Shown: in pieces, positions 30,062-55,562 of the stretch | Numbering within the stretch: position 1 is the first letter of the stretch | How the letters are laid out: each line of letters starts with the position of its first letter | NCBI GenBank assembly: GCA_965235115.1 | Contig: OZ249436.1 | Coordinates: forward strand, 4,838,001-4,902,000 | Length of the DNA stretch: 64,000 nt | Reading direction: 5' to 3' | From: Laetmonice hystrix | Taxonomy: Eukaryota | Position numbers and translations under genes: made by a program | Notes under the pieces: model-generated | Database searches by the model: none | What the model saw: the letters and a program-made list of their open reading frames with translations, nothing else | What the model was told of the DNA's origin: nothing

Positions 30062-33000
30062 CTGGATCCATCTCTTGACGCGAGGGGAGACTCGCGTTCG
30101 CCTCGAGCCAGAGCTCGAGCAACCGTTCTCCCCCTCGTCTGCGTCCGGTGGTCTCCTCGAGGAGGCCACCCGGGCCAGCCGCGCGAGTCGGCTCGGGATC
30201 GATCTCTTGACGCGAGGGGAGACTCGCGTTCGCCTCGAGCCAGAGCTCGAGCGACCGTTCTCCCCCTCGTCTGCGTCCGGTGGTCTCCTCGAGGAGACCA
30301 CCCGGGCCAGCCGCGCAGACGCGCGTAGACAATCGGGGATTCTTCCTGAGATCGGGCATTTGTGCCTTCGGGCCTCGGTGCTTCGGGCATGCGAGGATTG
30401 AGATCTCTCGTATAGGCTCACTGAGACGATGTCGGGCAGTCGATCATTTGATGATCTGCGGTTCGATCCCCCGATCTGATCCGATCTGATCAAGATCAGG
30501 CACCGAGCCTTACTCCAGTTCGTTCCTGGCTCGAGGTCGAGATCGTTACTCCTGCTTAGGCGGGAGAACTCCCGAATTTTGGGGTTATTTGCACCCGTCA
30601 TGAATTAGGGATACAGTTTATCTCCCGCTGGAGATGGCATCAAGTGGAAGATTTCCCCGCTTGATAGGCACAAGATTTGGCAGGTCCGTCGAGCTCGAGA
30701 TCGATGAGATCGGGATCCAGTTAGGATCGGAATCCAGATCAGGATCGGGATAAGGATCAGGATCGGTGCCTGGAGCTAGAGATCTAGGCCTAGGATACAT
30801 GCGAGGAAAGAGTTCTCTCGCACTAAGTGCATTAAGAGACAAGATCGCATAGACGATTTTGTTTGTTGATCGATCTCCCCGTAATGACTAGATCAAGATC
30901 GAGTTCGAGATCGATGCCTTGGCTAGAGATCTACATGCCAGGAAGATATCTCTCGCATCTAGACCATTGAGACGATATCGTGCAGGTGATATTTATTTAT
31001 TTAATCCCCGAGACGGCATCCAGACCGAGATCGGGAGCGTTCGCGATCGTCTGTACCTAGGAACGTCTCTTTCACGCGGGTCGTCGATCTCAAGATCGTT
31101 GCCCGGGTCAAGTTGGCCGTCGCACTAGACTTTGGGGTTTTCATAGGACAGCGTCGTCACCATGGTCTGGTCTAGATCTTGGGACCATGAGAGATGTCAA
31201 TCAGTATAGACCTATGGCCTAGGCTTACGCGACCGATCGAGGAGTGCTCTGTCGGCCAGGCAGCGTAATCGCGCCTCCCTCGCGGATCAGGGGAGTCAGT
31301 AGGCTAGAGGCGGCCTCTCTCTTGTATGCTTGCAGGGTCTCCACAGCACCTTGAAGTCAAGTAAGCCTTGAAAATCTTTAAATCGGCTTTTTTGGAAAAT
31401 CCTAAATTTCCTGTTCTCTTTGTCCCCCGCCTGACACATATGAAGTTATTTAAACTGGCTTGGGGACCATGATGGCACGAGGTAGAGTCCTTGTAGCGCC
31501 ATCTATGGCTGTGAGTAGTCTATGGAAACGGTGGTAAAGATCAGACTATCTGGAAAACTGCATGTTGATACAGTTTTTAAATTGAGAGACAAGAAAAACA
31601 TGGTGACTCAAAAAAAAAATTCTTTTTGAGTTAATCACATCGGATTAAGTAGAGTCCTATATGGTCTGTTATTTGTGGCGATTTGGCATGGATTGGTTGC
31701 CAATATCTAGACGGTTACGGGCAGAGTTTCGGGGGGTGTAGAGGATCTACGCTCAGTTTGTCCAACTATGGATCTTTTCACGGATCCCTTCCCCTTGTAC
31801 CCTACTTCGGTCGGACGTTAGGGGAGATCAACCCCCGTTAATCCGTTTTTTATGGCGGAATGTACTCTGCATTCGGACCCTCCTGGTAGGGGGTTCTAGG
31901 TTGGACCCAAGGGACCTTTCTCTTGGACTGAAGGAGCCTTCGACCTTTTCAGTTCCAAAGTGCCCTTTCTTTGCTCAGGCAAACCGTGTTCGCCTAGTCA
32001 CGGCGGCGGCCATCTAGACCGACCTTGGTTATAGTCGCCGGAGGCTATATCTTTCGGCGATAGGACTAGGGCGGCCCTGGCCTTATACGTCACTCGGCAT
32101 AGAGTTTGGTTTTTAATTCCTATCTACTCTATCCTATTTCGCCGGGGTTCGACTCTAAGTCCTCAGTTTTGCATAGCCGTCTAGCGATATAAGCCTGAGT
32201 TGGATCTGGACATTTTGGTTCGGAATTAAGCGTTCGCTTACAACGAAGCACACACAAGCGGTGAGCTTGCTTCATCAATTACCAGATTCCTTGGACCCTG
32301 TCTGTTCTCAGGGAGTGATTGCGTCTGGAGTTTGTCGAGCCCGCCAGGTGTGGCCCGTTCATCGGCTCACTCTCGCAGGGCCCTCCCTTTCTGTTTCCCT
32401 AAGTTCTAGCTAAAGAATAGGAGAGATCAGGAAACTTCGAGAGAAAGGTGCAGTCGTCACTTTGGGGTCGGTAGTGAGTCCGCCCCGGGAATTATTTTCC
32501 TTCAACCCGTAGGGGTTCTCGAGAAACGTGGGGTGTCTCAGTGTCTATAGGTAGATACGATAGACACGATAGACATCGAGGACACTTTCTTGCACTAGAA
32601 GTTTCTCAGTGTTCCAACGACAGTCCATGTTTCCAGTTGGTAGTTCTGCCGTTCGGTCCGAGTTTACCTAGCTGGCAACACAGTTGGGAAGCTGGACAGG
32701 TCGGAAGGGATGGAGCTTCATCCTTACATGGTGTGGCCCGTCCAGGCCACCCAGTTGCTCTCAGTTTTACCTCCCCTGGGATGGAGGATAAACCTGGTGA
32801 AGTGTATAGGCCTGGAAGTTGCACCGACAAGCTATGTCTGCAGTTTATCGGAGTTTCTTTTTTGAACTCAGGACCGCTTGGCAAACTGCATGGGTGACTG
32901 ATGCAGTTTGCGTTGTTGAGTGCGTGGCGCTCGAGCAAGGATTTCCTCGGCGGGTGCAGGGTTCTCCTTCCTCGGTCTCTGGCGCAGTTCCTCCAGTGGT

Positions 33001-33233
33001 GGATCGATCCACAGACTTTTCAGAGGGGTGTACTTTGGAATATCTAACCCCGGATGTTTCCCTTCTCCACAGATATCTCAGGGAGGTTTGTGAGCTATTT
33101 CCTAAATAGTTGGAGCGGGGTGTGGCACGGACACATATATGGTCTAGAATTAAAGGCAATTTTCCTAGGCTCTTCATCTCTTCGCCTGGCTCCCGACGCG
33201 ATCAGTAGTCCTGATCCACCCCGACAGTACGAT

Positions 33234-33396
33234 CCCCGCTAGCAATATTACGTTGCTACAACGTTCCCATAACGCTACGTAAATTTGTTTGGTCTTCTAT
33301 GTTGCCACAACGTTGTAGTTTCGTTAGACACAACGTTGTGAAGTGACCAAACTACAACTTTATTCAACGTTGTGAAAAGGTTGTGTGTTAGTTGGG
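33234..33396. mobile_element. Short MITE (CCC...GGG ends, AT duplication, possibly EnSpm/CMC-like) in DIRS element A
   Basis: Ends ccccgctagca / tgttagttggg, AT on both flanks, internal repeats of caacgttg. Confidence 0.55.
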
Positions 33397-33531
33397 ATGG
33401 CAGTGACCTATCTGTTAAATCAAAGGGACACTCGGTCACTGCTACTATTCCGGATAACCGGGGACATCCTCTGGTGGTGTCGCCAGCACCGAGTGACGTT
33501 GTGCGTCATTTCATGTGCAGGGCAAGTTTAA

Positions 33532-33639
33532 AGCCGGGGACACACAGGGACGTGCGTGCGTGCGTGCGTCAAGAGGCGTGCATGAAAATGGCCGACGCGT
33601 CTCGAACGCGCCGCGAAACGCGCCTGTCTGGGCCAGTCA
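33532..33639. mobile_element. 108-bp Harbinger-like MITE in the RNase H region of DIRS element A
   Basis: TAA at 33529-31 and 33640-42, with degenerate TIRs. Removing it restores CAT GTG CAG GGC AAG TTT AAT (HVQGKFN). Confidence 0.6.
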
Positions 33640-33919
33640 TAATATGGGCCGGGTTGGCCTTGTTTCACAGAGATATCAGAATTGTTGCGGGATTGGGCTC
33701 GATCCCTGCCTTATGACCCCGATCTGTTGTTTTAGAGAGGGAAGTGGCATTCAGCTCCGAAGATTTTCGATTTACACCCCTCTGCTTGTCAGGAACAGAG
33801 GTGAGAAGCGTGGATTCTCGGGACAAGCGGCCCAGAGCATTGCCGAGAAACATAGGCCCTCCTCGCAAGCTGCGTATCGAGACAGCGGGCCTTCCTTATT
33901 GAATGGGCAGGGGAACATA

Positions 33920-34740
33920 TGACTTTGATCTCACCGCCCCCTCTCAGTAGCCGATTGTCTGCTTGACAGGTTTCTTCGGGGGTTGTCGGTCTCCGCCGTA
34001 CGAGGAATCAGATCAGTGATTGCAGCAAAGGCATCAGCACCAGGCGGAGGTTCCTTTAGCTCTTGACGGGAACTCAGTGCGCTATTACGCAATTTGATAT
34101 TTCTTGAGCCCGTAAAGCCGAGGAAGGCCCCTTACTGGAGTTGGTCGGTGGTACTGAACGCATTGTTGCGTCCCCCCTTATTTATCTTATGTCTTCCGTA
34201 CACCAAGTTGTACTTGAAAGACCATGTTCCTGTAGCATTAACCTCAGGGCTGAGGGCTGAGGTGGTCGGAATTTACTGCCTTCGGGGGAGCGCGTTTTGG
34301 CCCCTGTTCCTCCATTGTGACCTTTGTTACCACACTCTGTGGCTAACAACCCGACCCTGGCTCTGAGCTCCGAGCTCAGGCCGGATGATGAGGAGCGCCT
34401 GTAGAGCTGCCTGTTAGAGGGGGTGTCGTGTCTTTTGGTGAGTGCGTACCCGTCGACATCACGCCGGCTACAATTGTGGAAGGTGGAAGGCTTTAGCTTA
34501 TAGCCTTGACTCGGGCAGACGCGGCCTTGTCCAAGTCTTTACAGTTTCATCGTGTTAAGGTTCTTGAGGTGCGGGCGATTTCTGCGTCCTTGGCTCCTAT
34601 TAATGGAGTAACCTTCGCCGAATTCCTCGAGGCTGCCTTTTGGCTATCAGACACCACCTTTACAGTTCTATTGCGTGAACCTGGTGGTCAGGAGGACGCC
34701 CTTTTAGTCTGGGCCACCTCATAGTGGTCCAGGCCGTTGT
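33920..34740 (+). pseudogene. Decayed tyrosine recombinase of DIRS element A
   Basis: Fragments align by eye to the element B recombinase (WSxxVVLxAL..PP; EVRAISAS..AAFW..TF). Multiple frameshifts. Confidence 0.75.
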
Positions 34741-35655
34741 TTGTCCACGTCACTGCATGATGGAGAGCGTGGGACAAAAAGAAGGGGGGGGGGGGCAGAT
34801 GTTATCTGTTCAGTCTTCCGGCCCTTGGTTTCCCTCACAAGGAGCAGGTATTACCTTCCCTACACACGTATAGCAGTTTTCAGGATTTAACGCTATAAAC
34901 GTTCCCAGGTGAAAACAAGTGCATGGGCATACGCCTCAATGGGTATGGCTGTGGAGTGAATATTTCTGTCTTCCCACCTCCTATGCTTAGCACTCGCTCT
35001 CATATGTTATGAGGTAAGTAGAAGCGTATGTAATTAACCATAACAGTTTCGGAGGAAACTGATTGTTAATAAATACGCGATACTTACCTCATAACATTAA
35101 AGGCCCTTCCCGCCTCCCCGCTTAGTGGTCATTTAAATCTGACTACTAGGTCACATGGACACTAGGGGGCGCACGATCCAGCGGATCTCCGCTAGAGGGA
35201 GCCATACACCGAATATGTTAGATAGACAGGAGTTCTGGTGGAACTCATTCTTGTTTCACTTAGAACACTTTTATTAAATTTTTTGACCATTGGGAATCGA
35301 GAAACTGTAAGTCTCTCATATGTTATGAGGTAAGTATCGCGTATTTATTAACAATCAGTTTCCTCCGAAACTGTTATGTTTACTATAAATTTTACCAAGT
35401 ATACTACTTTATTAATTTTACCCAGTATATCACTAAATTTTACCCAGTTTACGCGGCACTATGTCAAGGTAGATTTTGTTCAGTGACCAGGGCCCAGTTT
35501 TTCAAAAATTCTTAGTCAGAAGCCTTAGGTAAGCTACTGGCCCCTGTGCGCGTTGTCCAGTGATAAAGGTTTATGATTATACAGACCCTCAAGTGTGTTG
35601 ACAGACGTTGTCTAGGTAACACAAAATCTAATCGTTATTTGTCTCCTTGTTACAG

Positions 35656-35738
35656 AAACGGTGTCAATGTGGAGGGGTCGACCCACAAACAGGTCGTCGA
35701 CCTCATCAAGACGGGAGGTGATTCGCTTACTCTCTCAG
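35656..35738 (+). CDS. SNX27: SNX27-like internal exon, C-terminal part of PDZ domain (NGVNVEGSTHKQVVDLIKTGGDSLTLS)
   Basis: Acceptor ttgttacag| and donor |gtcagt. The peptide matches the SNX27 PDZ end (NGVNVEGATHKQVVDLI). It ends with one spare nt (G) that completes GTG with the next exon. Confidence 0.9.
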
Positions 35739-35949
35739 GTCAGTCAGCTTACACAGCCCTTTATTTCTAATCTAGCCCTCGGCTCCGCCTCGGACTCTCG
35801 GTGTCATGCAATATCTACTAAACTTAGAAGTTTAGTAGATATTGAGTTAGAATTGTATGAATCCTAAACACCATTGGATGAAGGCTTGACGCCAGCAGGT
35901 CTTAATTCATCATTGCACGAAGGTTACAATGGAATAGAACCTAACACCA

Positions 35950-36500
35950 GCACGTGTTGTGGAGAATAGAGGCTGACAGGACCAAGTGTCGGGGAGAATA
36001 GAGCCTGACAGGACCACATGTCGGTGAGAATAGAGCCTGACAGGACCACGTGTCGGGGAGAATAGAGCCCGTCAGGACCACGTTTTGGGGAGAATAGAGC
36101 CTGTCAGAACCACGTGTTAGGCAGAATAGAGCCTGACAGGGCCATGTGTCAGGGAGAATAGAGCCTGACAGGACCACGTGTCAGGGAGAGAATAGAGCCT
36201 GACAGCACCACGTGTCGGGGAGAATAGAGCCTCACATCACCACGTGTTGGGGAGAATAGAGCCTGAGAGGACCACGTGTCAGGGAGAATAGAGCCTGTCA
36301 GGGCTACGTGTTGGGGAGAATAGACCCTGTCAGAACCACGTGTTAGGCAGAATAGAGCCTGAGGACCACGTGTTGGGAGAATAGAGCCTGACAGGACCAA
36401 GTGTCGAGGAGAATAGAGCCTGACAGGACCAAGTGTCGAGGAGAATAGAGCCTGAGGACCACATGTCAGGGAGAAGAGAGCCTGTCAGGACCACGTGTTG
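35950..36500. repeat. Diverged ~32-bp minisatellite
   Basis: Unit ggagaatagagcctgacaggaccacgtgtcgg. Confidence 0.93.
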
Positions 36501-37038
36501 GTGTGGGCGATGAAGGGGTTCCCATTAGTCGTCAGTCTGAAGAGGGTCTGACAGGATCCAACTATCGTTCTGTCGTCTGGCTTTGTCCGGTCGATGGCAG
36601 GTGGGGCCATGACTGGACTGGGAGCAAATTGTGTAGGTCGTGGGCAGGTGTGTAAGTGGTTTGTGGCTGGGAGTCGGGTGGGGCGTGTTTGAGGTGAAGG
36701 TGGGGGGGGGGGGGGGTGATGGTAATTACCCTATAGTAATATTCCCGTGAAATTTGAAGGCGAGAACTAAAGATTGATTCCTAACTAAAACCTAATCCTA
36801 ACTCAAGGCCTCAGACTTCCCCATTCGGTCTACCCGTACCCGTAAACCCTACCTCAATCTCGTGGTAAAGTTACAATGGGGGAAGGACCAGGGGATGGGG
36901 GGGGGCTGCTCCTGTTGCTCCTGCTGCTCCTGTTGCTCCTGTTGAGCACCCAGCTCATGGCCAGCTGTTCACTTCAAGTAGGAGAAGGCGTGCCTGCGTT
37001 TCAACAGTCGCTAACCGTTAATAACGTATGGACTTCAG

Positions 37039-38020
37039 TTTCTCCCCTGTACCAATGCTTTCTCCCATGTACCCAATGCTTTCTCCCCTGTACCAATATT
37101 TTCTCCCCTGCACCAATGCTTTCTCCCCTGTACCCAATGCTTTCTCCCCTGTACCCAATGCTTTCTCCCCTGTACCCAATGCTTTCTCCCCTGTACCAAT
37201 GCTTTCTCCCCAGCACCAATGCTTTCTCCTATGTACCCAATGATTGCTCCCCTGCACCAATGCTTTCTCCCCTGTACCCAATGCTTTCTCCCCTGTACCC
37301 AATGCTGTCTCCCCTGTACCAATGTTTTCTCCCCTGCACCAATGCTTTCTCCCCTGTACCCAATGTTTTCTCCCCTGCACCCAATGCTTTCTCCCCTGTA
37401 GCAATGCTTTTTCCCCTGTACCAATGTTTTCTCCCCTGTACCAATGCTTTCTCCCATGTACCCAATGCTTTCTCCCCTGTACCAATATTTTCTCCCCTGC
37501 ACCAATGCTTTCTCCCCTGTACCCAATGCTTTCTCCCCTGTACCCAATGCTTTCTCCCCTGTACCCAATGCTTTCTCCCCTGTACCAATGCTTTCTCCCC
37601 AGCACCAATGCTTTCTCCTATGTACCCAATGATTGCTCCCCTGCACCAATGCTTTCTCCCCTGTACTCAATGCTTTCTCCCCTGTACCCAATGCTGTCTC
37701 CCCTGTACCAATGTTTTCTCCCCTGCACCAATGCTTTCTCCCCTGTACCCAATGTTTTCTCCCCTGCACCCAATGCTTTCTCCCCTGTAGCAATGCTTTT
37801 TCCCCTGTACCAATGTTTTCTCCCCTGCACCAATGCTTTCTCCCCTGTACCCAATGTTTTCTCCCCTGTACCCAATGCTTTCTCCCATGTAGCAATGCTT
37901 TCTCCCCTGTACCCAATTGATGCTTTCTCCCCTGCACCAATGCTTCCTCCCCTTCACCAATGCTTTCTCCCCTATACCCAATGCTTTCTCCCCTGTACCA
38001 ATGCTTTCTCCCCTGTACCA
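37039..38020. repeat. 21/22-bp minisatellite with a 389-bp higher-order duplication
   Basis: Unit caatgctttctcccctgtac(c)c. Diagnostic variants recur at 37212 and 37601. Confidence 0.95.
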
Positions 38021-38789
38021 AACTTAGAAAGCATAAAAAATACTATCAATGCATTCTTTAGTTCCTGCTAAGATCAATTAAAGCAATGAAGCAGAATATT
38101 GAAATGCGATTTCCTCGAGGTATATTTCCCCCAGGTGAACTTGCCAATGTCAAAACAGCATTTAAATCTTTCGCACTAAGTGATATGGCAGCTACATTTA
38201 TTGTACCCTGCTAGATGTATTTTTGCACACTTTATGTCTGATCCCCCACCCTCTATCACGGGTGGCGTGGGTTCCCTTCAATATTTCATGTGTTTGTGCT
38301 GGAACTGTTTTTACAGCCAAATTATTCTCTTCTCTCGCGCGGTCTGTCAATTAAGGACCATCTTGGATTCACAAAAACCCGTTCAACATGGAATCTTATG
38401 CCAATGCGGAAATGATGAATGGGTGATTTTTTCGGGGTTTCTAATTGATGTCCTTGAATACTGCTTAGAATTAAAATTAGCATCCCAATTAAAATGAAAA
38501 TGTAATCAAATAAAGGTCACAGAAATGCTTGAGAATCATGCTGGTGTGATGGTTACGACCAGTACGGAGCCCAGTGTGAACAGGTGATCGCCTTCCCACA
38601 ACATAAGATGGTGACCCAGATATCTCAAGTCATTTTGTTCCCTGCCACAGAACTGTCAGCAGCAATTCTCGTCAGGCAAGCGTTCCTCTCTGAACGCTGC
38701 CAGTTCTCCGAGTTCTACTCTGGGATTCTCGCGAGGTGGCAGTGTAATGTCTGACCTGTCCCGCCTGATCTGACCCATCAGTCTGATTT

Positions 38790-39330
38790 AGTTAACAGTA
38801 TACACTGACCCGTCTGTCCTAGTTAAATAACGGTGTACTCTCTGACCCGTGTCTTCTAGTAGTTAAATAACAGTATTCTCTCTGACCCGTGTCTCCGAGT
38901 AGTTAAATAACAGTATACTCTCTCACCCGTGTCTCCTAGTGAAATAACAGTATACTCTCTCTCCCGTGTCTCCTAGTTAAATAACAGAATACTCTCTCAC
39001 CTGTGTCTCCTAGTTAAATAACGGTATACTCTGACCCGTCCTTCCCAGTTAAATAACAGTGTACTCTCTGACCCGGAGTAAAATAACAGTATACCATCTG
39101 ACCCGCCCCGCATAGTTAGATAACAGTGTACTGTCTGACCCATCCTTCCCAGTAAGATAACAGTGTACCCTCTGATCCGGAGTAAAATAACAGTATACTC
39201 TCTGACTGTCCAGTGTCCCTCCCAGTTACATAACAGTGTACGGTCTGACCCGTCCCTCCTGTACTCTTTGATTCGTTCCTCCCAGTAAGATAATAGTGTA
39301 CTCTCTGACCCATTGCTCCTGCAGTTACAT
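38790..39330. repeat. Degenerate ~37-40-bp satellite
   Basis: Units resembling agttaaataacagtatactctctgacccgtgtctcct. Confidence 0.8.
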
Positions 39331-39334
39331 GACA

Positions 39335-41806
39335 GTCTACTGTATCATGGGCACGTCCTCTCCATAACGATGATATAGTCTGTGTCTGGAGCCTATCATT
39401 ACTGTGGTGGTCTACTGTATCATTGACACGTCCTCTCCATAACGATGATATAGTCTGTGTCTGGGGCCTGTCGTTACTGTGGTGGTCTACTGTATCATTG
39501 ACACGTCCTCTCCATAACGATGATATAGTCTGGAGCCTGTCGTTACTGTGGTCGTCTACTGTATCATTGACACGTCCTCTCCATAATGATGATATAGTCT
39601 GGAGCCTGTCGTTACTGTGGTTGTCTACTGTATCATTGACACGTCCTCTCCATAACGATGATATAGTCTGGAGCCTGTCGTTACTGTGGTCGTCTACTGT
39701 ATCATTGACACGTCCTCTCCATAACGATGATATAGTCTGGAGCCTGTCGTTACTGTGGTCGTCTACTGTATCATTGACACGTCCTCTCCATAACGATGAT
39801 ATAGTCTGGAGCTTGTCGTCACTGTGGTCGTCTACTGTATCATTGACACGTCCTCTCCATAACGATGATATAGTCTGTGTCTGGAGCCTGTCGTTACTGT
39901 GGTCGTCTACTGTATCATTGACACGTCCTCTCCATAACGATGATATAGTCTGGAGCCTGTCGTTACTGTGGTCGTCTACTGTATCATTGACACGTCCTCT
40001 CCATAACGATGATATAGTCTGTGTCTGGAGCCTGTCGTTACTGTGGTGGTCTATTGTATCATTGACACGTCCTCTCCATAACGATGATATAGTCTGGAGC
40101 CTGTCGTTACTGTGGTCGTCTACTGTATCATTGACACGTCCTCTCCATAACGATGATATAGTCTGGAGCTTGTCGTTACTGTGGTCGTCTACTGTATCAT
40201 TGACACGTCCTCTCCATAACGATGATATAGTCTGTGTCTGGAGCCTGTCGTTACTGTGGTCGTCTACTGTATCATTGACACGTCCTCTCCATAACGATGA
40301 TATAGTCTGGAGCCTGTCGTTACTGTGGTCGTCTACTGTATCATTGACACGTCCTCTCCATAACGATGATATAGTCTGTGTCTGGAGCCTGTCGTTACTG
40401 TGGTCGTCTACTGTATCATTGACACGTCCTCTCCATAACGATGATATAGTCTGGAGCCTGTCGTTACTGTGGTCGTCTACTGTATCATTGACACGTCCTC
40501 TCCATAACGATGATATAGTCTGGAGCCTGTCGTTACTGTGGTCGTCTACTGTATCATTGACACGTCCTCTCCATAACGATGATATAGTCTGGAGTCTGTC
40601 GTTACTGTGGTCGTCTACTGTATCATTGACACGTCCTCTCCATAACGATGATATAGTCTGGAGTCTGTCGTTACTGTGGTGGTCTACTGTATCATTGACA
40701 CGTCCTCTCCATAACGATGATATAGTCTGGAGCCTGTCGTTACTGTGGTGGTCTACTGTATCATTGACACGTCCTCTCCATAACGATGATATAGTCTGGA
40801 GCCTGTCGTTACTGTGGTCGTCTACTGTATCATTGACACGTCCTCTCCATAACGATGATATAGTCTGGAGCCTGTCGTTACTGTGGTCGTCTACTGTATC
40901 ATTGACACGTCCTCTCCATAACGATGATATAGTCTGGAGCCTGTCGTTACTGTGGTCGTCTACTGTATCATTGACACGTCCTCTCCATAACGATGATATA
41001 GTCTGTGTCTGGAGCCTGTCGTTACTGTGGTCGTCTACTGTATCATTGACACGTCCTCTCCATAACGATGATATAGTCTGGAGCCTGTCGTTACTGTGGT
41101 CGTCTACTGTATCATTGACACGTCCTCTCCATAACGATGATATAGTCTGGAGCTTGTCGTTACTGTGGTCGTCTACTGTATCATTGACACGTCCTCTCCA
41201 TAACGATGATATAGTCTGTGTCTGGAGCCTGTCGTTACTGTGGTCGTCTACTGTATCATTGACACGTCCTTTCCATAACGATGATATAGTCTGGAGCCTG
41301 TCGTTACTGTGGTCGTCTACTGTATCATTGACACGTCCTCTCCATAACGATGATATAGTCTGGAGCCTGTCGTTACTGTGGTCGTCTACTGTATCATTGA
41401 CACGTCCTCTCCATAACGATGATATAGTCTGGAGCCTGTCGTTACTGTGGTCGTCTACTGTATCATTGACACTTCCTCTCCATAACGATGATATAGTCTG
41501 TGTCTGGAGCCTGTCGTTACTGTGGTCGTCTACTGTATCATTGACACTTCCTCTCCATAACGATGATATAGTCTGGAGCCTGTCGTTACTGTGGTCGTCT
41601 ACTGTATCATTGACACGTCCTCTCCATAACGATGATATAGTCTGGAGCCTGTCGTTACTGTGGTCGTCTATTGTATCATTGACACATCCTCTCCATAACG
41701 ATGATATAGTCTGGAGCCTGTCGTTACTGTGGTCGTCTACTGTATCATTGACACGTCCTCTCCATAACGATGATATAGTCTGGAGCTTGTCGTTACTGTG
41801 GTGGTG
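39335..41806. repeat. 69/75-bp minisatellite, about 35 copies
   Basis: gtctactgtatcattgacacgtcctctccataacgatgatatagtct[gtgtct]ggagcctgtcgttactgtggtc. Confidence 0.97.
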
Positions 41807-42389
41807 GTCGCATGAATGATTGAAGTGTGACATGGAAGAAAAACGAATCCTTTCACACGGGACAAAAACAGCCGGTCTCTCGTTGTCATGAACATGAGGC
41901 CGGGCGGAGTTAAGACAAGATCCTGGTGATTCATTCATCAGGCTTGTAAAACACGACCGACGACCCTGATGTGGAGAAGTGCGCCTGCTGCCATCAGGTG
42001 TGATCAATGGTTTCCTGTCAGAGGCTATTTTGAGGTGTTTCACAATGAGATAGCGTTTATTCTGTTATGGACATCGGCCTTCCGTCTGAAGTTTGGATCG
42101 CATTTTTAAACCTGGATGTGTTTAAATCGATTTTACATGGGAAAACAAGAAACAATGAAGACAAATACCTTTGCCTGGTCGACCTTAATCGAGACTTATT
42201 TGTAATCATTCATGATTCAACCACAGTACCTTCTGCCGCCATTTACTAGTCTGGATTCTATCAAATAGCCAGGTGCCTATTGCGCTGACTCGTTGTAACC
42301 ACAGACTAATTTACGAAGTGTTATAATTATATCTCGTGATTAGTGAGTTTTATGTTTTCAACCCCTGATTTGTGTTAATAATTTACCAT

Positions 42390-42790
42390 TGATGAGTGTG
42401 TTTTGTCTAACAATCCGTGATTTCTGTTAATTCCCTACCACTATTCCCAGTGATGAATGTGTTTTGTCTAACAATCCGTGATTTCTGTTAATTCCCGACC
42501 ACTATTCCCAGTGATGAGTGTGTTTTGTCTAACAATCCGTGATTTCTGTTAAAACCCGACCACTACTCCCAGTGATGATTGTGTTTTGTCTAACAATCCG
42601 TGATTTCTGTTAAAACCCGACCACTACTCCCAGTGATGAGTGTGTTTTGTCTAACAATCCATGATTTCTGTTGATACCACTATTCCCAATGATGAGTGTG
42701 TTTTGTCTAACAATCCATGATTTCTGTTGATACCACTATTCCCAATGATGAGTGTGTTTTGTGTAACCATCCGTAATTTCTGTTTATCCT
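42390..42790. repeat. About 57-61-bp satellite upstream of the duplicated acceptor
   Basis: Unit gatgagtgtgttttgtctaacaatccgtgatttctgttaattcccgaccactattcccagt. Confidence 0.9.
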
Positions 42791-42951
42791 GATCTCTACT
42801 CCCAATGACGATTGCGCTTCTGTTTATCATTCCTGAATTTCTGTATTTTCTATTAATTTTCCACTCTGTACACTTGGAGAAGATCTGGTTGTGTTTTGTG
42901 CTCACAATCCATGTTTATTTTAATTCCCGACCCCCTACAGCCAGTGACGAG

Positions 42952-43428
42952 TGTGTTTTGTGTTTGAATGAGTGTGTTTTGTATTTGCAGTGATCTCGGT
43001 GCCCAGACAGGTGGCCGAGAGACTTGAGCCGAGTGATGATTCCTCTGGTCCATCACTGATTGACTATTCTGAGAAGCGATCACTCCCAATATCTATCTGT
43101 GTTTTGTGTTTGAATGAGTGTGTTTTGTATTTGCAGTGATCTCGGTGCCCAGACAGGTGGCCGAGCGACTTGAGCCGAGTGATGATTCCTCTGGTCCATC
43201 ACTGATTGACTATTCTGAGAAGCGATCGCTCCCAATATCTATCTGTGTTTTGTGTTTGAATGAGTGTGTTTTGTATTTGCAGTGATCTCGGTGCCCAGAC
43301 AGGTGGCCGAGAGACTTGAGCTGAGTGATGATTCCTCTGGTCCATCACTGATTGACTATTCTGAGAAGCGATCGCTCCCAATATCTATCTGTGTTTTGTG
43401 TTTGAATGAGTGTGTTTTGTATTTGCAG
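42952..43428 (+). repeat. Three extra tandem 146-bp copies of the SNX27 splice acceptor plus the first 107 nt of the exon
   Basis: tgatctcggtgcccagacag starts at 42991, 43137, 43283 and 43429, each preceded by the same 39-nt tract ending tttgcag. Only the last copy reaches the donor at 43578. Confidence 0.95.
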
Positions 43429-43577
43429 TGATCTCGGTGCCCAGACAGGTGGCCGAGAGACTTGAGCCGAGTGATGATTCCTCTGGTCCATCACTGATTG
43501 ACTATTCTGAGAAGCGATCGCTCCCAATATCTATCCCCGATCAGCAGACCCTCGACAGGAATGGCGAACGATTTGTG
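43429..43577 (+). CDS. SNX27: SNX27-like exon, PDZ end, linker and PX start (VISVPRQVAERLEPSDDSSGPSLIDYSEKRSLPISIPDQQTLDRNGERFV)
   Basis: Acceptor atttgcag| and donor |gtgagt. 149 nt, in phase with both neighbouring exons. DYSEKRSLPISIP and NGERFV resemble SNX27. Confidence 0.9.
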
Positions 43578-44758
43578 GTGAGTTTTCACTCCTTTATACT
43601 TGATAATGGATGCCCCTCGAAACGTTGAGAACTACTCAGACATTCACATGATAGAGGACAGCTTGTAACCTAAGACCTAGAATACAGTTTCAAGTAACAA
43701 GGGAATACATTTATGGTTGTATTCACTGGTAAGTATCAACTTTCAGTTTGTTATGATATGAGGGTCGTCTCTGTCATAAATCAAATATTAATTTCTGAGG
43801 CCTACAAAAAGGATTGATTTGTGTGTCAGTGTGTAACTGAAAGGGTTGCCCAGGGAGACGTCCTGTTGGGGCACTGCTAAAAGCTTCAGGTTAATATTGC
43901 CATTGTCTTCATGCATAAAACATGACCTTGGCAAACGACATAACTTTTTGGGGCATGTCTTCGGATTTATCTAGGTCATTTGTAGCTTGATATAAGGTAA
44001 ACATGCCCTCTATCTGAGTGTACCCTCTACAGCCGAACCGTAACAAGAACCTCTGTCAATCTGCATGTTTATAAATGCAGGATACCAGTATTACTGGTAA
44101 GTAAGAAGTAAAATTCGGAGTTGGTAACAAGAAATGTTTGCCCATGAGGACACAAGTCATTTTAATGGTACATGCGAAGTCACTTCCTACTCTCAACCCC
44201 GTTTTTGCACCAGTCTTGTTTATTGGAGAACCTTACTGCTGACCCAGATCGGCTTCCTGGCATGACGTCATGATTAGTCCTGCATTACTCCGCCAGGGGG
44301 CATGCCAGTCGATAGATCAGATAACCTTATTAGATGCCGTTAGCTGCCATACAGGTGCTTAAACAGAGAAGGTCAAAGTTGGCTGCTATGCCTGTCCTTT
44401 TTTACCTGTTTTTGTCCCTTTATCAGTAATTTATTGTCTTCTTTGTTTTATAAAGATTCCATAAGAATTCTTCAATAGCTACAAAATATTAATTCAAATC
44501 AAGGTGACTGAAACGAAACCTCTCCCTTTGACGAATGGGATGATGAGATCAAGAGAACATTAACGATGCAGCCGAAATGAAACGTGGTCTGACAAATAGG
44601 GCAGTTAACATTCTGTGAGTCAGTCTGTGAGAGATGGAGAAAGTCCCATAGGCATAGAGAGGCCTTAAGTCATCGTTATCTTACCGCCTGCCTGGCAATG
44701 ACATCGACTTCTAACCCTGTCATTACCATCATCATAGGATGACTGACCACTTGACCAT

Positions 44759-46647: not shown

Positions 46648-47606
46648 GTTAAGGTCATACGCTCCCTTACCTCATAACTTAATAACATAATGAGATTTAT
46701 TGCTAGTCTTTTAGCCAATGGTCAGAAATTTTCCTTCTGCGGCTGCGCGGTGACCGCGCAGCCCCCTCCCACCTGATGACGTCACCACCCGGCCCATTTG
46801 AGCTGGCTAGCTAGTCACATTTTGTCTGACCACGGGTGCACCCACACGTGTTCGTCAGACTATTGCGGAGTTATAGCCTTTGGTCAGGCTTGGGTTTATC
46901 GTTTTCGTACACAGAAACTGTGAGTATTTAAACCCTTGGTTCTTCTTACGAATTTCGTTCGCCAGCTTTTCCTGTCCGGAGAGTGTGGTTTTACGAGCGG
47001 TTTGCATTGTTCGTTTCTTGTATTTACCGACTCGCCACGTAGTGTGGTTTGGTCTCGGTCTACCGGTCACCGCTTGGTCACCGCCTTTTGACTGTTGACC
47101 TGTGGTTGACGAAGCTTCCATGTATTGAGTGACTGGTGTTTAATTTTGGTATGTTTTTACCGTCACAGATGACCAGGTGTCAACATGAGTTACTCTTAGG
47201 CCTATGGGACGACCGTCGGCGGTGTGTAGCGCTCGAGAGTTGGAGGCCAGACGGGGTCGCGGACCTCGGCTCTCCGTCTGAGTCGACGGCCGGGGCGGAC
47301 TCGGTGGCCGGGTCGTCAGTCCGGGGGGTCTCAGCCAGACCTGCCGTCGAGCTTAGGATGTGGTAGGACGACCTCCCCGGGGAAGTTGGCTTCGGGCGGC
47401 GAGGGGGCCGGTGTGGCTCCGGTCTCCATTCGGCGGAGTGGAGACCTGGCTCCCTTTTACGATTGGTACGGGGTCGCACGCGGTTGACCGTCCAAGTAGA
47501 CGGGATTCCGTGATGCCTAACTTGACCCAGACGTCGAACTGTCCGCCAGACAGGCAGGGGCAGGACGGCGTCTCGTAACCTTTCGGAGATTGAGACAGGG
47601 TCGCAC

Positions 47607-49174
47607 ATGGTTGACCGTCCAAGTAGACGGGATTCCGTGATGCCCAACTTGACCCAGACGTCGGACTGTCCGCCAGACAGGCAGGGGCAGGACGGCGTCT
47701 TGTCCAATCTAGTGGCCAGGGAGGCTGATGACCCGATGTTCGGGATGTCGGTCTCCCAGCCGGTGAACTGTCAGCCCAAGAGGCAGGGGCAGGGATCCGG
47801 CTTACCTGACGGCGGAGTGAGACTAGGCCACAGTCAGGGCGGTAGCGTTGCCCCCGGGCTTGATTTCTTCAGAGATTTCGAGCCCGTCGGCGGAGCCCTT
47901 CAAAGCGCGGGGGCGTCGAGCGTCCGGCGTGACGAGCCTGTGCGTGACGGCGCTCGCCTTCAGTTCTCACGGGGGAGAACTACGACACCCTTGGCCACGA
48001 TAACACGGGAGTCGGTTAGCCGGGACCCCTACCAGCGGCGTAGTAGGCCCTTTCAAGATGGGAGTGACTCGGTTTCTGATCTCTCCCCTCCCCGACTAGT
48101 TGCGGAGTCCGGCCCGGTTAGGTCTAGGTCTCCTCTACGTCGTCACCAGCCGTGGGATGGAGACTCCGTGCAGGAGCTTCCCTTGAGCTTTGCGGAGTTG
48201 CGTAACAAGGCATCCCGCCTCCTAGGAGAGCAGGTTTGCCCGCCTCGTCGGGATTCCCCCTGCTTAGCCTTGCCAGCGGTGCCTGCCTTTCAGTTAGACT
48301 GGGGTTCGCCCCTGCCGGAGGTGGTGAATTTTCCGTATGGAGCCAGTAATACACAGATTTGGGACGTCCTCTCGGCTTGGCTTAAAGGAGTTCCCGGCAA
48401 GCCTTCCACGTCGGGCTTGCCAAGCCCACCGGTGGGAGCCCTGCATTCGACCCCTAGTGGTATGGGGACCGGGCATTTCTTCAAGTTTGACAAAGGAAAG
48501 ACCCGGCCGAAGATTAAGTGGTTCCGTCCCCAGGACTATTTGCTGCACTCGGGACCTCCAGCTGCCGGTCCCTCGCTAGATGGGGAGGCTGCGGCTCTCA
48601 ACATTTCGGAGCCCTCCAATATTTCGGTTTCTCGTTACCTCTTAGGAGAATTTGACGATAGAGCACGAGCTACGACGGCCGCGGCGATTTCGGCCGAGTT
48701 TTTGTTAGCTGCGGCTCAGAAATCTCTACGCGCTGGGTTCCTTGCGGATGTGGAGGTTTTCTGTCTTCGTCTGCGGTCGCCCTTCGCCACGTGATCGAGC
48801 TACAGGTGCGAACTCAGGCATATGTGATTTTGCTTCGGCGTGATGCGGCTTTAAAGTCTTCAGTCTTATCTGAAGTATCTCGCACTCTGTTACGCCAAAC
48901 TCCCCTGCAGGCGGACTGGCTATTCGCGGGTCAGTTGGCAGAGGCTGCGACGCGCGAGAAGGCGGCTTGGGAATTACGTCGTAGTCTTGAACCCCCAGCG
49001 GCTCATTCTCGTTATGGTCGACAAGCTCTACGCCGGCCGTTGCAGCACTTTCGGCCGTTCTACCCCCAGAGTGGGCCGACTCTTAGGCCGACGGAGTCTA
49101 TGTTCCGGGGGCGGGGACGGGGGCCCAGTCGGGGCCGTCCCCAGTCACGGGGCCGGTGGCGCGGCCGTCCTTAG
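47607..49174 (+). pseudogene. gag-like ORF1 of DIRS element B (split into 47607-48794 and 48791-49174)
   Basis: Lies upstream of RT. The C-terminal part has LLRRDAAL...PLQADWLFAG followed by an R/G-rich tail, as typical of DIRS ORF1. Frameshifted. Confidence 0.65.
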
Positions 49175-49259
49175 TGGCGCTCCCTCTCCAGGAGGTGGGG
49201 GTCTCCCCTGCTCTCTCGGTCCGTGGGTCTGCGCCTTCGGCGTGAGGGCGCGCGTTTGG

Positions 49260-51030
49260 GTTGTCGATGTGTGGACCCTTTCTGTCCCCAGGGACGGTCT
49301 ACGCATTGAGTTCCGTTCCGCCGCGTCTGTCGCCGGTAGTGAGGCCGTTCAGGCTGCTGCCTGGTTTAGTGCAACGCCGTTGCTGACGGAGGTCCGGTCC
49401 CTTCTAGACAAGGCGGCTGTGGTTCGAGTAGCGCCAGGGCAAGCAGCGCCGGGGTTCTTCTCCCCGATGTTTCTGGTGAGCAAGGCGTCGGGCGGCCTTC
49501 GTCCGGTCTTCAATCTGAAAGCTCTGAACACTCACCTCTACCGGGAAAAGTTTCAAATGGAGACGGTAGAGGGAGTGTCACAGAGCTTGAGAGTGGGGGA
49601 CTGGGCGGTAACCTTGGACATCGAGGATGCATACCTGTCCCCATCTTTCGCCCTCATCAACGCAACCTGCGATTTGCTACGGGACCCGAGGACTGTTATC
49701 AGTTTACAGTCCTTCCGCTTGTGTTAACGTCGGCACTACGGGTGTTCACGAAACTGGCGGCGCAGGTCGGACACTGGGCCCGGCAGAGAGGAATGTTCCT
49801 TCACCTGTACCTGGACGACTGGTTGTTACGCAATCCAGATCAGAAGCTGTGGTGCGACCAGGCGGACGGGTTGCTCCGTACCGTGGCGGAGCTGGAGTGG
49901 AGGCTCAACCTTCCGAAGTGTTCCCTTCGACCGTCCCAACAGTTCGTTTATCTGGGATTCCGTTGGGACACGCTTTTGGGCCGAGTGTTTCTCACCGCCA
50001 GATGGCAGGAGAAACTGTGGGCTATTCTCCCGCGGCCCGTTTGTGGCTCCAGGTGTTGGGTTTGCTCAAACTTGGGGTCACGGCCGGTGCCGTTGGGCAG
50101 GATGCACCTTCGTCCGATGCAGTTCGCTTTGCTGAGTCAGTGGCAACCGTTCAGAGATCCACTGGAAGCGCGTGTCCCGTTACCCCCGAATCTAGGACTT
50201 TGGATCCGGTGGTGGACGGGATGGGAGGCTCTCACGGAGGGCCGGCTGTTTGGACAGAGGGTGCCGACTGTCCATATGTTCACCGACGCGTCGTTGACGG
50301 GCTGGGGGCCCATCTTCTAGACTGGGAGGCCCAGGGCACGTGGTCCCCGGAAGAGTTGGGGTACCACGTGAACGTCCTGGAACTGCTGGCCATTTTCAGG
50401 GGCTTGTAGCAGTTCACGGAACAGGTGACGGGGTCCGTACTGTTAATTCATTCAGCCAACGTGGCGTTGGCTTACCTTCGCAAGGAGGGGGGCACGCGTT
50501 CGGCTCGTCTGTTCCGGATGACGTGGGACTTCCTGTGGTGGTGTCGCAACCACGAGGTCGACTTACAGCTAACCCACGTCCAAGGGAAGTCCTACCAATG
50601 GGCGGATTCGCTCTCGCGGGGGGCAGACTGCCACCGTCGGACTGGTCTCTACGGAGAGACGTAGTCCGGGGGATTTTTCAGGTTTGGGGGGAGCCACAGG
50701 TGGATCTGTTTGCCACTCGGGCCAATCATCAGCTCCCCCTTTACGTGAGCCCCTTTCCGGATCCGTGCGCCATTGCTGTAGACGCTCTGTCGATCCCTTG
50801 CTACGGAGAGTGTTAGCAAGGATCAGATCGGGGAAGGCCACCCTGATTCTCGTGGCCCCCTGGTGGACATCACAACCGTGGTTCCCCGATATAGGGGAGC
50901 TCCTACTGGATCGTCCCAGGGAGCTACCGGTTTCGGCGGACTTGCTGGAACAGAGGGGACAGTTTCACCCCGCCCCAGGACTGTACAGACTTCACGCATT
51001 TCTGTTGTCCGGGGACGATGCGAAGATCAG
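49260..51030 (+). pseudogene. Reverse transcriptase, RNase H and adenine methyltransferase-like ORF of DIRS element B, frameshifted
   Basis: RT motifs FFSPMFLVSKASGGLRPVFNLKALN, TLDIEDAY and HLYLDDWLL. RNase H motifs FTDASLTGWG and HVNVLELLAI. MT-like motifs WGEPQVDLFAT and LILVAPWWTSQPWFP. The motifs are spread over several frames. Confidence 0.92.
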
Positions 51031-52072
51031 GGATTCTCTGGCTCCGTGGCAGAATTTATCTCCCTCAAGCATCGACGGTCGACCCGTTCCGTCTATCAGT
51101 CCCGATGGGCAGCCTTTGTCGCCTGGGCTGAGGACCGAAGGGTTGATGTCTCCGCTCCCTCTGTTTCGTCAGTACTTTCTACTGACCCAGTTTGACCGCG
51201 GACTGTCAGTATCGGCGGTCCGGGGGTATCGATCAGCTATGGCATCGACGGTGTCGGACTCGGAAGGTCAGTCCTTGTTCGTCTCGCCGGAGTTGAGTGC
51301 GCTCCTGCGGAGTTTTTTTCCCTGCATAGGCCGGTGGGGGCCAACAGGGCGCCTCTGTGGAATCTGGCTTTGGTTCTGGATTCCCTAACTCAGCCTCCCT
51401 TCGAGCCGCTAGGGTCGGTGGACCTTATATACACCTGACGTGGAAGGTGTTGTTCCTGGTGGCTCTAGCGTTGGGACGGAGGCGGTCTGAGTTGCATGCA
51501 TTCGGCGGGGCAGCTGAATACGTGCGGTTTGGGCGGCGGTATTCGGGGGTAACGCTTTAGTTCTTACCGCAGTTCATTCCTAAGAATCAGGATCCAGCGA
51601 TTCCTACCCTGGCGGTTTCCTTTCCGGCTTTGTCCCCTGAGGTGGGCCAACATGATGCTGAGCGGCTCCTTTGTCCTGTGAGAGCTCTCAGATTCTACCT
51701 GACTAGGACAGCAGATCGGCGAGCGATGTCAGAACGGTTATTTGTCTCTGATGATGACCGGGTTCGTATAAAGACATTGCGCCAGCTTCTCTGTCCCGCT
51801 GGCGATGCGAGACGGTAAGGCAAGCTTATGACACCGCCTCGCCAGATCAGTTGACTGTCTGCCAGGTGAGGGCGCACGAGGTAAGGACGTTGTCAGCTTC
51901 TTGGGCTCATTTTAACGGGGTAAGTGTTGGGGACATCATGAAGGCTGCTTACTGGCGGGCGGAGTCTACGTTCACTAAGTACTACCTCCGCCAGATGTGT
52001 GGTCAACGTGATGAGCTCTACAGTCTGGGGCCGGTGGTGGCGGCTCAGACAGTGGTATCCGGGACGCGGTAG
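51030..52072 (+). pseudogene. Tyrosine recombinase of DIRS element B, frameshifted
   Basis: STRSVYQSRW; ALALGRRRSELHA (catalytic R); LCPVRALRFYL; HEVR; AAYW; FTKYY. Interrupted by stops and frameshifts. Confidence 0.9.
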
Positions 52073-52974
52073 GCGTCTACCGGGGGGAGGGGGGAGGGGG
52101 GGGGAGTGCGAGTGGGATCAGAAAAGCGGAACACTCGAGGGGGAGATGTAGGACGGTGGATCGGGAAGTCCGGAGAAATAGGAACTATTCCGGACAACAG
52201 GATCCTCTTACAATAAAGAAATTTTAGGTAAATTGTTTTACCTCCTCCCATGCTTAGCACTCGTATCTCATTATGTTATTAAGTTATGAGGTAAGGGAGC
52301 GTATGACCTTAACCAATACAGTTTTAGGGATAAACTGTTTGTTAAGGAATACGCGTACTTACCTCATAACAGTACAACCCTCCCTCCGTCCCCCCATTTT
52401 CTTTTGGGGGTCAGACAAAAATGTGACTAGCTAGCCAGCTCAAATGGGCCGGGTGGTGACGTCATCAGGTGGGAGGGGGCTGCGCGGTCACCGCGCAGCC
52501 GCAGAAGGAAAATTTCTGACCATTGGCTAAAAGACTAGCAATAAATCTCATTATGTTATTAAGTTATGAGGTAAGTACGCGTATTCCTTAACAAACAGTT
52601 TATCCCTAAAACTGTATTGTTCATCACAGTCAGTACGTGTATGCGGACAGTACGTGAGATATATTTTCATCACAGTCAGTACGTCAATGCCGACTGCTTT
52701 CTCTGAGACGTGTGTCATTACACACGTCTCACCCAACGCTCTTGGACTGATGAGTTCGCGCAGAAATCCATACCACACGAATAGAAAACGTCAGCCATGG
52801 TTGGGCTCATGATGAAACATGCAGTGACTGAGTGGGTGTGTTTAAAACAAGACTCCTTGGGTATCGGTCACCGACCCTGCCTACTCTTTGCCATGCTGAT
52901 CGGAGAAGGGAATCCAAGAAATTTGAAGTGCGCAAAAAATATGTGCTTGGTGAAATTAAATAACGCATTGTGTG

Positions 52975-55562
52975 ACAACACAGTGGATAAGATTGGTACT
53001 CGATGGGCGAGGGTGTGTGGCCGTGTTACAACACGGTGGGTAAGATTGGTACTTGATGGGTCAGGGTGTGTGGCCGTGTTACAACACGGTGGGTAAGATT
53101 GGTACTCGATGGGTCAGGGTGTGTGGCCGTGTTACAACACGGTGGATAAGATTGGTACTCGATGGGTCAGGGTGTGTGGCCGTGTTACAACACGGTGGAT
53201 AAGATTGGTACTCGCTGGGCGAGGGTGTGTGGCCGTGTTACAACACAGTGGATAAGATTGGTACTCGCTGGGCGAGGGTGTGTGGCCGTGTTACAACACG
53301 GTGGATAAGATTGGTACTCGATGGGCGAGGGTGTGTGGCCGTGTTACAACACAGTGGATAAGATTGGTACTCGATGGGTCAGGGTGTGTGGCCGTGTTAC
53401 AACACCGTGGATAAGATTGGTACTCGATGGGTGAGGGTGTGTGGCCGTGTTACAACACGGTGGATAAGATTGGTACTCGGTGGGCGAGGGTGTGTGGCCG
53501 TGTTACAACACGGTGGATAAGATTGGTACTCGATGGGTGAGGGTGTGTGGCCGTGTTACAACACGGTGGATAAGATTGGTACTCGCTGGGCGAGGGTGTG
53601 TGGCCGTGTTACAACACGGTGGATAAGATTGGTACTCGCTGGGCGAGGGTGTGTGGCCGTGTTACAACACGGTGGATAAAGCCCCAGTCCCACCAAAGCC
53701 GAATTAGCTACGACGTGTCACGATCTGATAAATCGTGTAGAATCGGGAAAGGTCCTAACTCGGTCGTAGAGTAGTCTTGATAGATCCTCATAGGTCGCGA
53801 CAATTGTGAACTGTTCAAGATCGGGGCTATATCGTAGGTCAAACGTTGCTCAGTCGGGAATATAGTCGGGGAATAATCGGGATAGTTCGTTGTTCAGTCC
53901 TGGTTTATCGTAGGAAAATTGCCAAAAAAGTCCCACCAAAGCCGATTGTACTACGTTCCATGCCGTTCTATCAAGATCTAAAATTTATTTTAAGTCGTGA
54001 TGAAATAATGACAACCCGAAGACCTAGCTACGAATTGCCACGTTCAACGGCGACTGGGCAACGGTTTTCCAAAGATCTCTCAACGATCACGATGCGTGCT
54101 ATCATGTTCTATCTCGACATCCCCCCGACCTTCCCGACCGAGAAACAACTTAGCAACGTTCTCTGCCGACCTATGCAGATTGAGCTACGTCCTATCAAGA
54201 ACCCGACCCGATGTTTGACCAACGATGTAGCAACGTTCTATGCCGTCTGGGCCCCAGCCGAGCGACGACCTGTCCCGATGACCTCAGGGCTAGATCTAGG
54301 AAATGTCTGGCGATTGTCCTACGATCAACCAGGACTGAACAACGAACTATCCCGATTGTCCCCCGACTATTCCCGACTGAGCAACGTTTGACCTACGGTA
54401 TATCCCCGATTTGAGCTTTTTCCCGACCAGTGCCGATTGTTTTGAACAGTTTAAAATTGTCGGGGTGCAATCGTGGCCTATCCCGACCTATGGGGATCTA
54501 TCAAGACTACTGTACGACCGAGTTAGGACCTTTCCCGATTCTACACGATTTATCAGATCGTGACACATCGTAGCTAATTCGGCTTTGGTGGGACTGGGGC
54601 TTTAGCCCTGATCTAGACCAGATGTCATCGGGACAGGTCGTAGCTCGGCTGGGGCACGGCATAGAACGTTGCTACATCGTTTGTCAATCTTGGTATAGGT
54701 CGCCATACATCGGCCCGGGATCTTGAGAGGTCGAAGCTCAATCTGCATAGGTCGGCAGTGAACGTTGCTTTAGTCGTTGCGCTGTCGGGAAGGTCGGGCC
54801 GATTTCGGGATAGAACATGATAGATTCGTAGCTAGCTCTTCGGGTTGTCGTGATTTTATCACGATTCATCACGACTTAAACTAAATTTCAGATCTTGATA
54901 TAACGGCATAGAACGTCGTACAATCGGCTTTGGTGGGCCTGGGGCTTAAGATTGGTACTCGCTGGGCGAGGGTGTGTGGCCCTGTTACAACACAGTGGAT
55001 AAGATTGGTACTCGATGGGCGAGGGTGTGTGGCCGTGTTACAACACAGTGGATAAGATTGGTACTCGCTGGGCGAGGGTGTGTGGCCCTGTTACAACACA
55101 GTGGATAAGATTGGTACTCGATGGGTGAGGGTGTGTGGCCGTGTTACAACACAGTGGATAAGATTGGTACTCGATGGGTCAGGGTGTGTGGCCCTGTTAC
55201 AACACAGTGGATAAGATTGGTACTCGATGGGCGAGGGTGTGTGGCCGTGTTACAACACCGTGGATAAGATTGGTACTCGATGGGTGAGGGTGTGTGGCCG
55301 TGTTACAACACGGTGGATAAGATTGGTACTCGATGGGCGAGGGTGTGTGGCCGTGTTACAACACCGTGGATAAGATTGGTACTCGATGGGTGAGGGTGTG
55401 TGGCCGTGTTACAACATGGTGGATAAGATTGGTACTCGCTGGGCGAGGGTGTGTGGCCGTGTTACAACACAGTGGATATGATCGGTACTCGATGGATCAG
55501 GGTGTGTGGCCGTGTTACAACACGGTGGATAAGATTGGTACTCGTTGGGTGAGGGTGTGTGT
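52975..55562. repeat. 53-bp minisatellite interrupted by the MITE at 53680-54946
   Basis: acaacacggtggataagattggtactcgatgggcgagggtgtgtggccgtgtt on both sides of the insertion. Confidence 0.96.
53680..54946. mobile_element. Harbinger-like MITE containing an inverted copy of itself (53930-54601)
   Basis: TIR agccccagtcccaccaaagccga / tcggctttggtgggcctggggct. TAA TSD (53677-79 and 54947-49) whose removal restores the satellite sequence ggataagattgg. Internal A-B-A'-B' arrangement. Confidence 0.85.

Follow-up and report, generated by a model that had tools for sequence, protein, structure and literature searches.

Mirage minisatellites, the original description of which, for the Adh3 gene of amphioxus, is reportedly that of Canestro et al. 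(2002), and the human CBS insertion c.844_845ins68, for which the cited study is said to be that of Romano et al. (2002), are the closest described systems to the locus analysed here. In the amphioxus globin gene BflGb6, an intron's 3' end and the 5' portion of the next exon are repeated in tandem as units of 150-160 bp, with six and three copies on two haplotypes, and RT-PCR suggested that splicing is undisturbed (Ebner et al. 2010, PMC3087553). The Adh3 mirage has also been reported without disturbance of splicing (PMC3087553, PMC3902484), and a third amphioxus mirage is known from PGBD5 (PMC3902484). The CBS insertion duplicates an intron/exon junction, the distal site of which is strongly favoured, so that the mRNA is normal and the upstream piece of exon is removed along with its mutation; for this insertion both the population frequency and the splice mechanism are known (PMC2630376). 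Similarly, the 37-bp VNTR of human F7 intron 7 spans an exon-intron boundary, and the splice site next to the exon body is used while identical spare sites remain silent (PMC1557585). Finally, intron gain by tandem duplication of AG|GT has been described in a human minigene (Hellsten et al. 2011, PMC3265369). These accounts follow the available parts of the respective papers.

Here we describe a repeat of this kind in SNX27, within a 64,000-nucleotide stretch of Laetmonice hystrix DNA (contig OZ249436.1, positions 4,838,001 to 4,902,000 of the forward strand), which we call the window and whose first letter is position 1 in the coordinates below. The reading we favour, at a probability of roughly 0.72, is that the array is a mirage minisatellite that arose as a by-product of unstable tandem repeats and is tolerated, with no regulatory role and with SNX27 output near normal. 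A literature search, with most subscription journals lying outside it, found no paper on an annelid mirage and no occurrence of the phrase 'duplicated splice acceptor'.

A repeated intron-exon boundary in SNX27

The gene was identified as SNX27 by matches to invertebrate SNX27 proteins at up to 84-86% identity, the best named of which came from nemerteans (84%) and molluscs, which points to a host that is probably a lophotrochozoan, and a genome search placed whole-protein-length matches at one locus. Four exons on the forward strand were located in the window by tblastn (35657-35738, 43429-43577, 60463-60655 and 61526-61605). The first of these encodes the end of the PDZ domain, matches seven SNX27 proteins at 63-85% identity and is followed by the donor CAG|GTCAGT at 35739. 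The second, 149 nt long, covers the linker between PDZ and PX together with the first part of the PX domain, matches solved SNX27 chains and ends at the strong donor GTG|GTGAGT at 43578; it lies between introns of 7.3-7.7 kb before and 16.9 kb after. The third, of 193 nt, belongs to the PX domain and takes up the loose ends of two spliced contigs, X4 and X5. The latter comes from another organism (11 differences over 155 nt) and joins the exon ending at 35738 directly to 43429-43577 and then to the exon at 60463, and so confirms the gene model. Among the 10 SNX27 exon matches found, one is affected by the array.

The array occupies 42952-43535 and comprises 4.0 copies of a 146-bp unit (TRF period 146, 98% matches), each consisting of 39 nt of intron ending in TTTGCAG and the first 107 nt of the SNX27 exon. 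The copies are arranged head-to-tail on the forward strand, at 42952-43097, 43098-43243, 43244-43389 and 43390-43535, with acceptors ending before 42991, 43137, 43283 and 43429 that are letter-identical over the 39 nt of intron. Both the layout and these acceptors had been proposed in an initial annotation made from the letters alone, and are borne out by TRF and by comparison of the copies. Three junctions of 146-nt copies at 99% identity are not a chance arrangement. The array ends sharply, the match extending by 0 bases on the left and 0 bases on the right; no exact microhomology was found at its ends, and one stretch of 9 bases that copy 1 shares with the upstream intron may be due to chance. 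When 42850-43700 was searched against its own genome, with very common words skipped, all three matches fell at the SNX27 locus; the repeat appears to be private to this locus, with a putative source in the gene's own boundary rather than in a dispersed element.

The substitutions between copies that the initial annotation had pointed to are present in the assembly. Copy 4 equals the consensus and holds the working acceptor, with 0 differences from the spliced contig X4, while copies 1 to 3 bear one private change each: a synonymous G>A at 43082, a synonymous A>C at 43166 and a C>T at 43322 that turns a conserved proline into leucine. Since the private letter of copy 2 is also the letter found at the same place in the related organism (contig X5), some of these differences may be old alleles picked up by unequal exchange. 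Of 20 aligned rows, 19 have the proline and copy 3 alone does not; its loss is what an untranslated copy would be expected to show, but is a single event. A selection test on the copy changes, with two of three synonymous, was not significant (P=0.17); one released residue and two synonymous changes out of three are too few to show an absence of constraint.

The choice of acceptor decides whether the reading frame stays open. Joined to the exon 35657-35738, the acceptors before 42991, 43137 and 43283 all read ...LPISI-CVLCLNECVLYLQ-stop, with a TGA where the exon part of the following copy begins (43137, 43283 and 43429), and only the acceptor before 43429 gives an open frame. Up to the donor at 43578 the four possible exons measure 587, 441, 295 and 149 nt, and the premature stops lie 438, 292 and 146 nt before it, in every case more than 50 nt from the downstream junction. 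The 50-nt rule of nonsense-mediated decay (NMD) was shown in mammals; fly and worm largely do not need it. Earlier statements that full-length SNX27 requires three upstream acceptors to be bypassed, and that use of an upstream acceptor alone would yield a premature stop and a PDZ-only product, are thus upheld by the reading-frame joins. The further claim of only one donor holds for strong donors, of which 43578 is the only one, but not for weaker sites, as each unit contains a CAG|GTGGCC on the forward strand (43011, 43157, 43303 and 43449, the first spanning 43008-43016). These match 6 of 9 consensus positions, compared with 7-8 of 9 for the true donors. Enumeration of the stop-free two-step splice routes across the array marks the CAG|GT of every copy as a possible pair of donor and acceptor by which the extra copies would be removed exactly.

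A repeat-rich genome

Tandem arrays with a period of at least 10 form 38 blocks in the window and make up 37.5% of it; their share is 46.6% in the SNX27 span, compared with 11.7% in 58 kinase loci elsewhere in the genome. That the SNX27 array is one of 38 in the window had gone unmentioned in the initial annotation. Immediately upstream lies an older and purely intronic 61-bp minisatellite (42386-42961, forward strand), detected by TRF with period 61 and 6.7 copies at 42386-42844; 42890-42961 matches two of these units at 82-84%, and the last unit, which is degenerate, extends into the beginning of the 146-bp array. The two arrays, adjoining, with a motif in common and drawn from the same intron end, represent two rounds of amplification at one acceptor.

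We sought a base rate for such layouts among kinase exons. Of 826 candidates, 130 were scored, giving 144 matches; long intronless matches and tandem gene copies were left out, and 76 regions were chosen, 58 of which were obtained (73 exon hits). Screening for the layout flagged 8 of 79 hits (73 kinase and 6 SNX27), which by eye resolved into one clear case, two borderline cases and five that were intronic or of low complexity. The same layout was thus seen in 1 of 73 kinase exon hits (95% interval 0.03-7%), a loose rate judged by eye. The clear case is an exon of an MKK3/6-like (MAP2K) kinase (L045:1823-1984, at G000:C1, about 13424420-13424580), where a 79-bp unit made up of intron end, acceptor and 49 nt of exon occurs twice with one difference, and where use of the upstream acceptor leads to a stop after 17 codons. 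From this we infer that acceptor-spanning repeats are uncommon per exon and likely to be many per genome. The borderline cases are a kinase acceptor reached by the last of the 8 units of a 93-bp array (L023:1230-1993) and a 23-nt piece of exon repeated 60 nt upstream, in the intron (L009:1935-2017).

Other repetitive features were encountered along the way. An element of about 6 kb in an SNX27 intron (46648-52619) is bounded by inverted terminal repeats, contains a complementary stretch in its interior and, in broken frames, matches reverse transcriptase weakly; by its layout we take it to be DIRS1-like. A second element at 28400-35382 shares this inverted-repeat layout and has similar terminal words; within it, a 9-bp repeat of 37 copies (29732-30061) has a minus-strand frame that matches a collagen profile, which is probably only a Gly-X-Y repeat. 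Between two parts of a 53-bp array (52970-53679 and 54947-55561) lies a 1.3-kb block with several nested inverted repeats (53674-54940) that may be a foldback-type insertion. Elsewhere in the genome (G000:C4:25253376-25298170), nine near-identical kinase exon matches spaced by about 5.55 kb form a tandem array of genes or segments.

Read-derived contigs and splicing across the array

Five public runs contain the stretch, four of them from one sample that is maybe the source of the assembly. Four of the five were compared on the single-copy stretch 43390-43989, run X2, of the same size as X1, being left out. All evidence from runs takes the form of contigs built from reads rather than of reads. 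X4 and X5 were taken to be RNA-derived because their contigs are spliced, none being on record as RNA, and X1 and X3 to be genomic because their contigs cover the intron.

The genomic contigs bear directly on the tandem structure. In X1, a contig of the 146-nt unit has a depth of 81 and a 60-nt contig joining the end of a unit to its start a depth of 68.5, against 25 and 29 for the contigs that lead into and out of the array and 13 and 14 for two alleles of the downstream intron. In X3, a circular 176-nt contig has a depth of 163, with flanks at 53-67. In contigs built from the sample's reads, the copy-to-copy junction thus stands at about 2.5 times the depth of single-copy sequence, with which the stutter reading fails; the initial annotation had already argued against it from the substitutions. 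Four copies on each haplotype would predict a junction depth of 68 and a unit depth of 91 in X1 (68.5 and 81 seen), and a division into six and one fits too (unit 88, junction 63), but requires a collapsed assembly. The best fits, with depth a rough measure and one sample behind it, are 4+4 or 4+3 for X1 and 4+2 for X3. A model with four copies on one haplotype and one on the other was rejected, as it predicts 60 for the unit and 35 for the junction. Depth is no copy number; the array is probably on both haplotypes, with several copies per haplotype on average. The two haplotypes of the sample differ at 4 sites in the 112 nt beside the array, and the source animal is highly heterozygous. Within 43564-43989, a contig differs from the assembly at 4-5 further sites in the next 344 nt.

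The spliced contig X4, from the same sample, is 2219 nt long at a depth of 70, matches 43438-43580 with 0 differences and runs from the last copy into the exon at 60463. A record of the copy-to-copy junction is listed for both genomic-type runs but not for X4. A transcript using the acceptor before 43283 would split the 31-mer graph at 43426, 43438, 43469 and 43506, and X4 is unbroken at the last two. Of 75 sampled words, X4 holds a share of 0.17, compared with 0.16-0.18 predicted for the form with the authentic exon only and 0.31 for the form using 43283; the associated P=0.004 applies only if the words are distinct, and, as the words come from the same contig set, it is not independent of the other observations. 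Taken together, the unbroken contig, the lack of a junction record and the word share show that the dominant steady-state RNA is without the extra copies, within the single contig set of a single sample, where rare forms are lost in contig building and those bearing stops would be concealed by NMD. X4 covers 43438 onward, and the joint from 35738 to 43429 is seen instead in the relative's X5. Over 43390-43437 X4 has neither cover nor a record across, and this gap was not counted as evidence.

We propose that a 146-bp piece across the SNX27 acceptor was duplicated and amplified to four copies in an array-rich region, presumably by unequal crossing-over or slippage. As the copies add in front of the exon, the intact 149-nt exon survives at the 3' side beside the sole strong donor, and, both flanking introns being long, it is probably recognised across itself. 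To judge from human data, the acceptor closest to the donor at 43578 would then win by exon definition, and the three upstream copies would be removed as intron and be free to drift. In the available part of that work, sites that lie closest across the exon are favoured when flanking introns are long, and the upstream preference of 3' sites is 'significantly reduced' with such introns, a reversal not being shown (PMC9225289). A small share of transcripts might still use an upstream acceptor, most likely 43283, and, with its early stop, would probably be degraded.

If at least 20% of transcripts used upstream acceptors, mainly 43283, and were destroyed, the allele would be leaky and mildly hypomorphic, with more copies meaning less SNX27; this would be a cost of repeat instability and not a designed control. 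The four acceptors are identical over their 39 nt of intron, the 295-nt exon to 43283 is in a size range that is still spliced between long introns, and human 3' sites retain some upstream preference (the last two from the available part of PMC9225289). Moreover, X4 begins at 43438, exactly 30 bases before the diagnostic base of copy 3 at 43468; the same 30-base rule was seen at three breaks in the genomic contigs, and in the 31-mer graph a lone break at 43438 was reproduced only by a dead-end branch of copy 3. This hints at a little copy-3 RNA, either through acceptor 43283 or as unspliced precursor. However, a drop in coverage, unspliced precursor or an unlisted variant could explain the start of X4 equally well, no copy-3 record is listed for X4 any more than a junction record, and a complete 43283 form would have broken the graph at four points, at the last two of which X4 is continuous. 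The published mirages and CBS 844ins68, as far as the available parts of those papers go, also yield normal mRNA. We therefore consider a leak of this size unlikely. The initial annotation had raised a hypomorphic allele; X4, of full-length type at depth 70 and with no junction contig, lends it no support and does not refute it either.

In a more specific form, the leak would be graded, with 43283 taking a real share and 43137 and 42991 less, so that a splice-acceptor VNTR varying between haplotypes would set the SNX27 dose through decay. We regard this as doubtful, at long odds. If true, the array, with one marker letter per copy, would be a ruler barcoded by nature with which to see how far exon definition extends in an invertebrate, and would stand among many loci of this genome at which repeats trim the output of genes; were leak to scale with copy number, expression variation in repeat-rich genomes would commonly stem from such repeats.

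We assign very little weight to a two-step rescue, in effect a nascent intron, in which an upstream acceptor is followed by a 20-nt mini-exon to the internal CAG|GT (43011, 43157 or 43303), which is then spliced to the AG|GT of copy 4 (43449). The route is stop-free, adds 0 nt and gives an mRNA that is letter-for-letter normal; as the first 20 exon bases are alike in all copies, X4 is compatible with it. The AG|GT pairs are 146-438 nt apart, above 60 nt. The internal donors are, however, weaker than the true ones, as noted above, the AG before 43449 lacks a pyrimidine tract and follows a strong acceptor at a distance of 20 nt, and 20-nt exons are poorly defined when between long introns. Duplicated AG|GT gave 6-16% splicing in a human minigene (PMC3265369) and is the model proposed for mirages (PMC3087553), in the available parts of those papers.

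Comparably improbable is a selected dosage switch by which SNX27 is tuned by copy number through NMD. It could draw on the stop that follows every upstream acceptor and on the apparent presence of the array on both haplotypes, divergent as these are beside it, but frameshift and stop are the default outcome of a 146-bp unit, copies 99% alike are young or homogenised, and the same layout occurs in the unrelated MKK3/6-like gene. The literature search, with most subscription journals outside it, found no paper on an SNX27 poison exon or NMD event. The copy-number-tuned switch put forward in the initial annotation is thus left without support, X4 being of full-length type, depth, as a rough measure, fitting best with an array on both haplotypes, splicing having been reported as normal for the class and the layout recurring in the genome. 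Least credible of all is an assembly artefact of a single-copy exon. Copies that are almost identical and bear one private change apiece might in principle result from consensus errors, and the copy-specific letters are absent from the listed read contigs. However, bubbles of a single letter are often removed as contigs are built, so that the missing letters say little, and the read-contig junctions and depths refute an artefact for the tandem structure.

Comparison with known systems

Four of the five features of a mirage are found in the SNX27 array: a head-to-tail repeat whose unit spans the intron-exon boundary, confinement to the locus, spare copies that retain their splice signals, and a regular mRNA from the authentic boundary copy (X4 from 43438 onward, one sample). 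The fifth is length instability, in which copy number varies between haplotypes, individuals or cells; on this, the rough contig depths of the one sample fit equal as well as unequal haplotypes (4+4 or 4+3 in X1, 4+2 in X3). As a mirage repeat outside amphioxus, the array is a clean case with reads behind it. For annotators it urges caution, as exon-like copies with perfect acceptors need not be used. It also provides a test bed, with identical acceptors at 149, 295, 441 and 587 nt from one donor and each upstream copy marked by a letter, in which ordinary RNA reads could gauge the reach of exon definition in a lophotrochozoan.

The following comparisons rest on the available parts of the papers introduced at the outset. 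As in BflGb6, the unit joins the 3' end of an intron to the 5' part of an exon, with 146 bp against 150-160 bp and four copies against six and three, and as in the amphioxus mirages generally, spare AG signals coexist with a normal mRNA. Unlike those, the host here is a lophotrochozoan-like animal and the gene a single-copy trafficking gene; the copies are 99% alike at SNX27, compared with 81-100% in the amphioxus mirage. Poison exons and alternative splicing coupled to NMD likewise bring in a premature stop by splice choice, but these are conserved and regulated, whereas the SNX27 array appears to be a young, lineage-limited repeat with a predicted stop-bearing form. The F7 VNTR is on the donor side, with its spare sites downstream of the real one, whereas the SNX27 array is on the acceptor side. 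The case of Hellsten et al. (PMC3265369) is similar in that CAG|GT lies within the unit and its use in two copies would excise the duplication exactly; there, however, the duplication consists of exon sequence only and has to be spliced out, whereas the SNX27 unit includes the real acceptor, so that simple skipping to the last copy suffices. This is the behaviour of CBS 844ins68, in which a duplicated junction is likewise resolved in favour of the distal site, with two copies of 68 bp where the SNX27 array has four of 146 bp.
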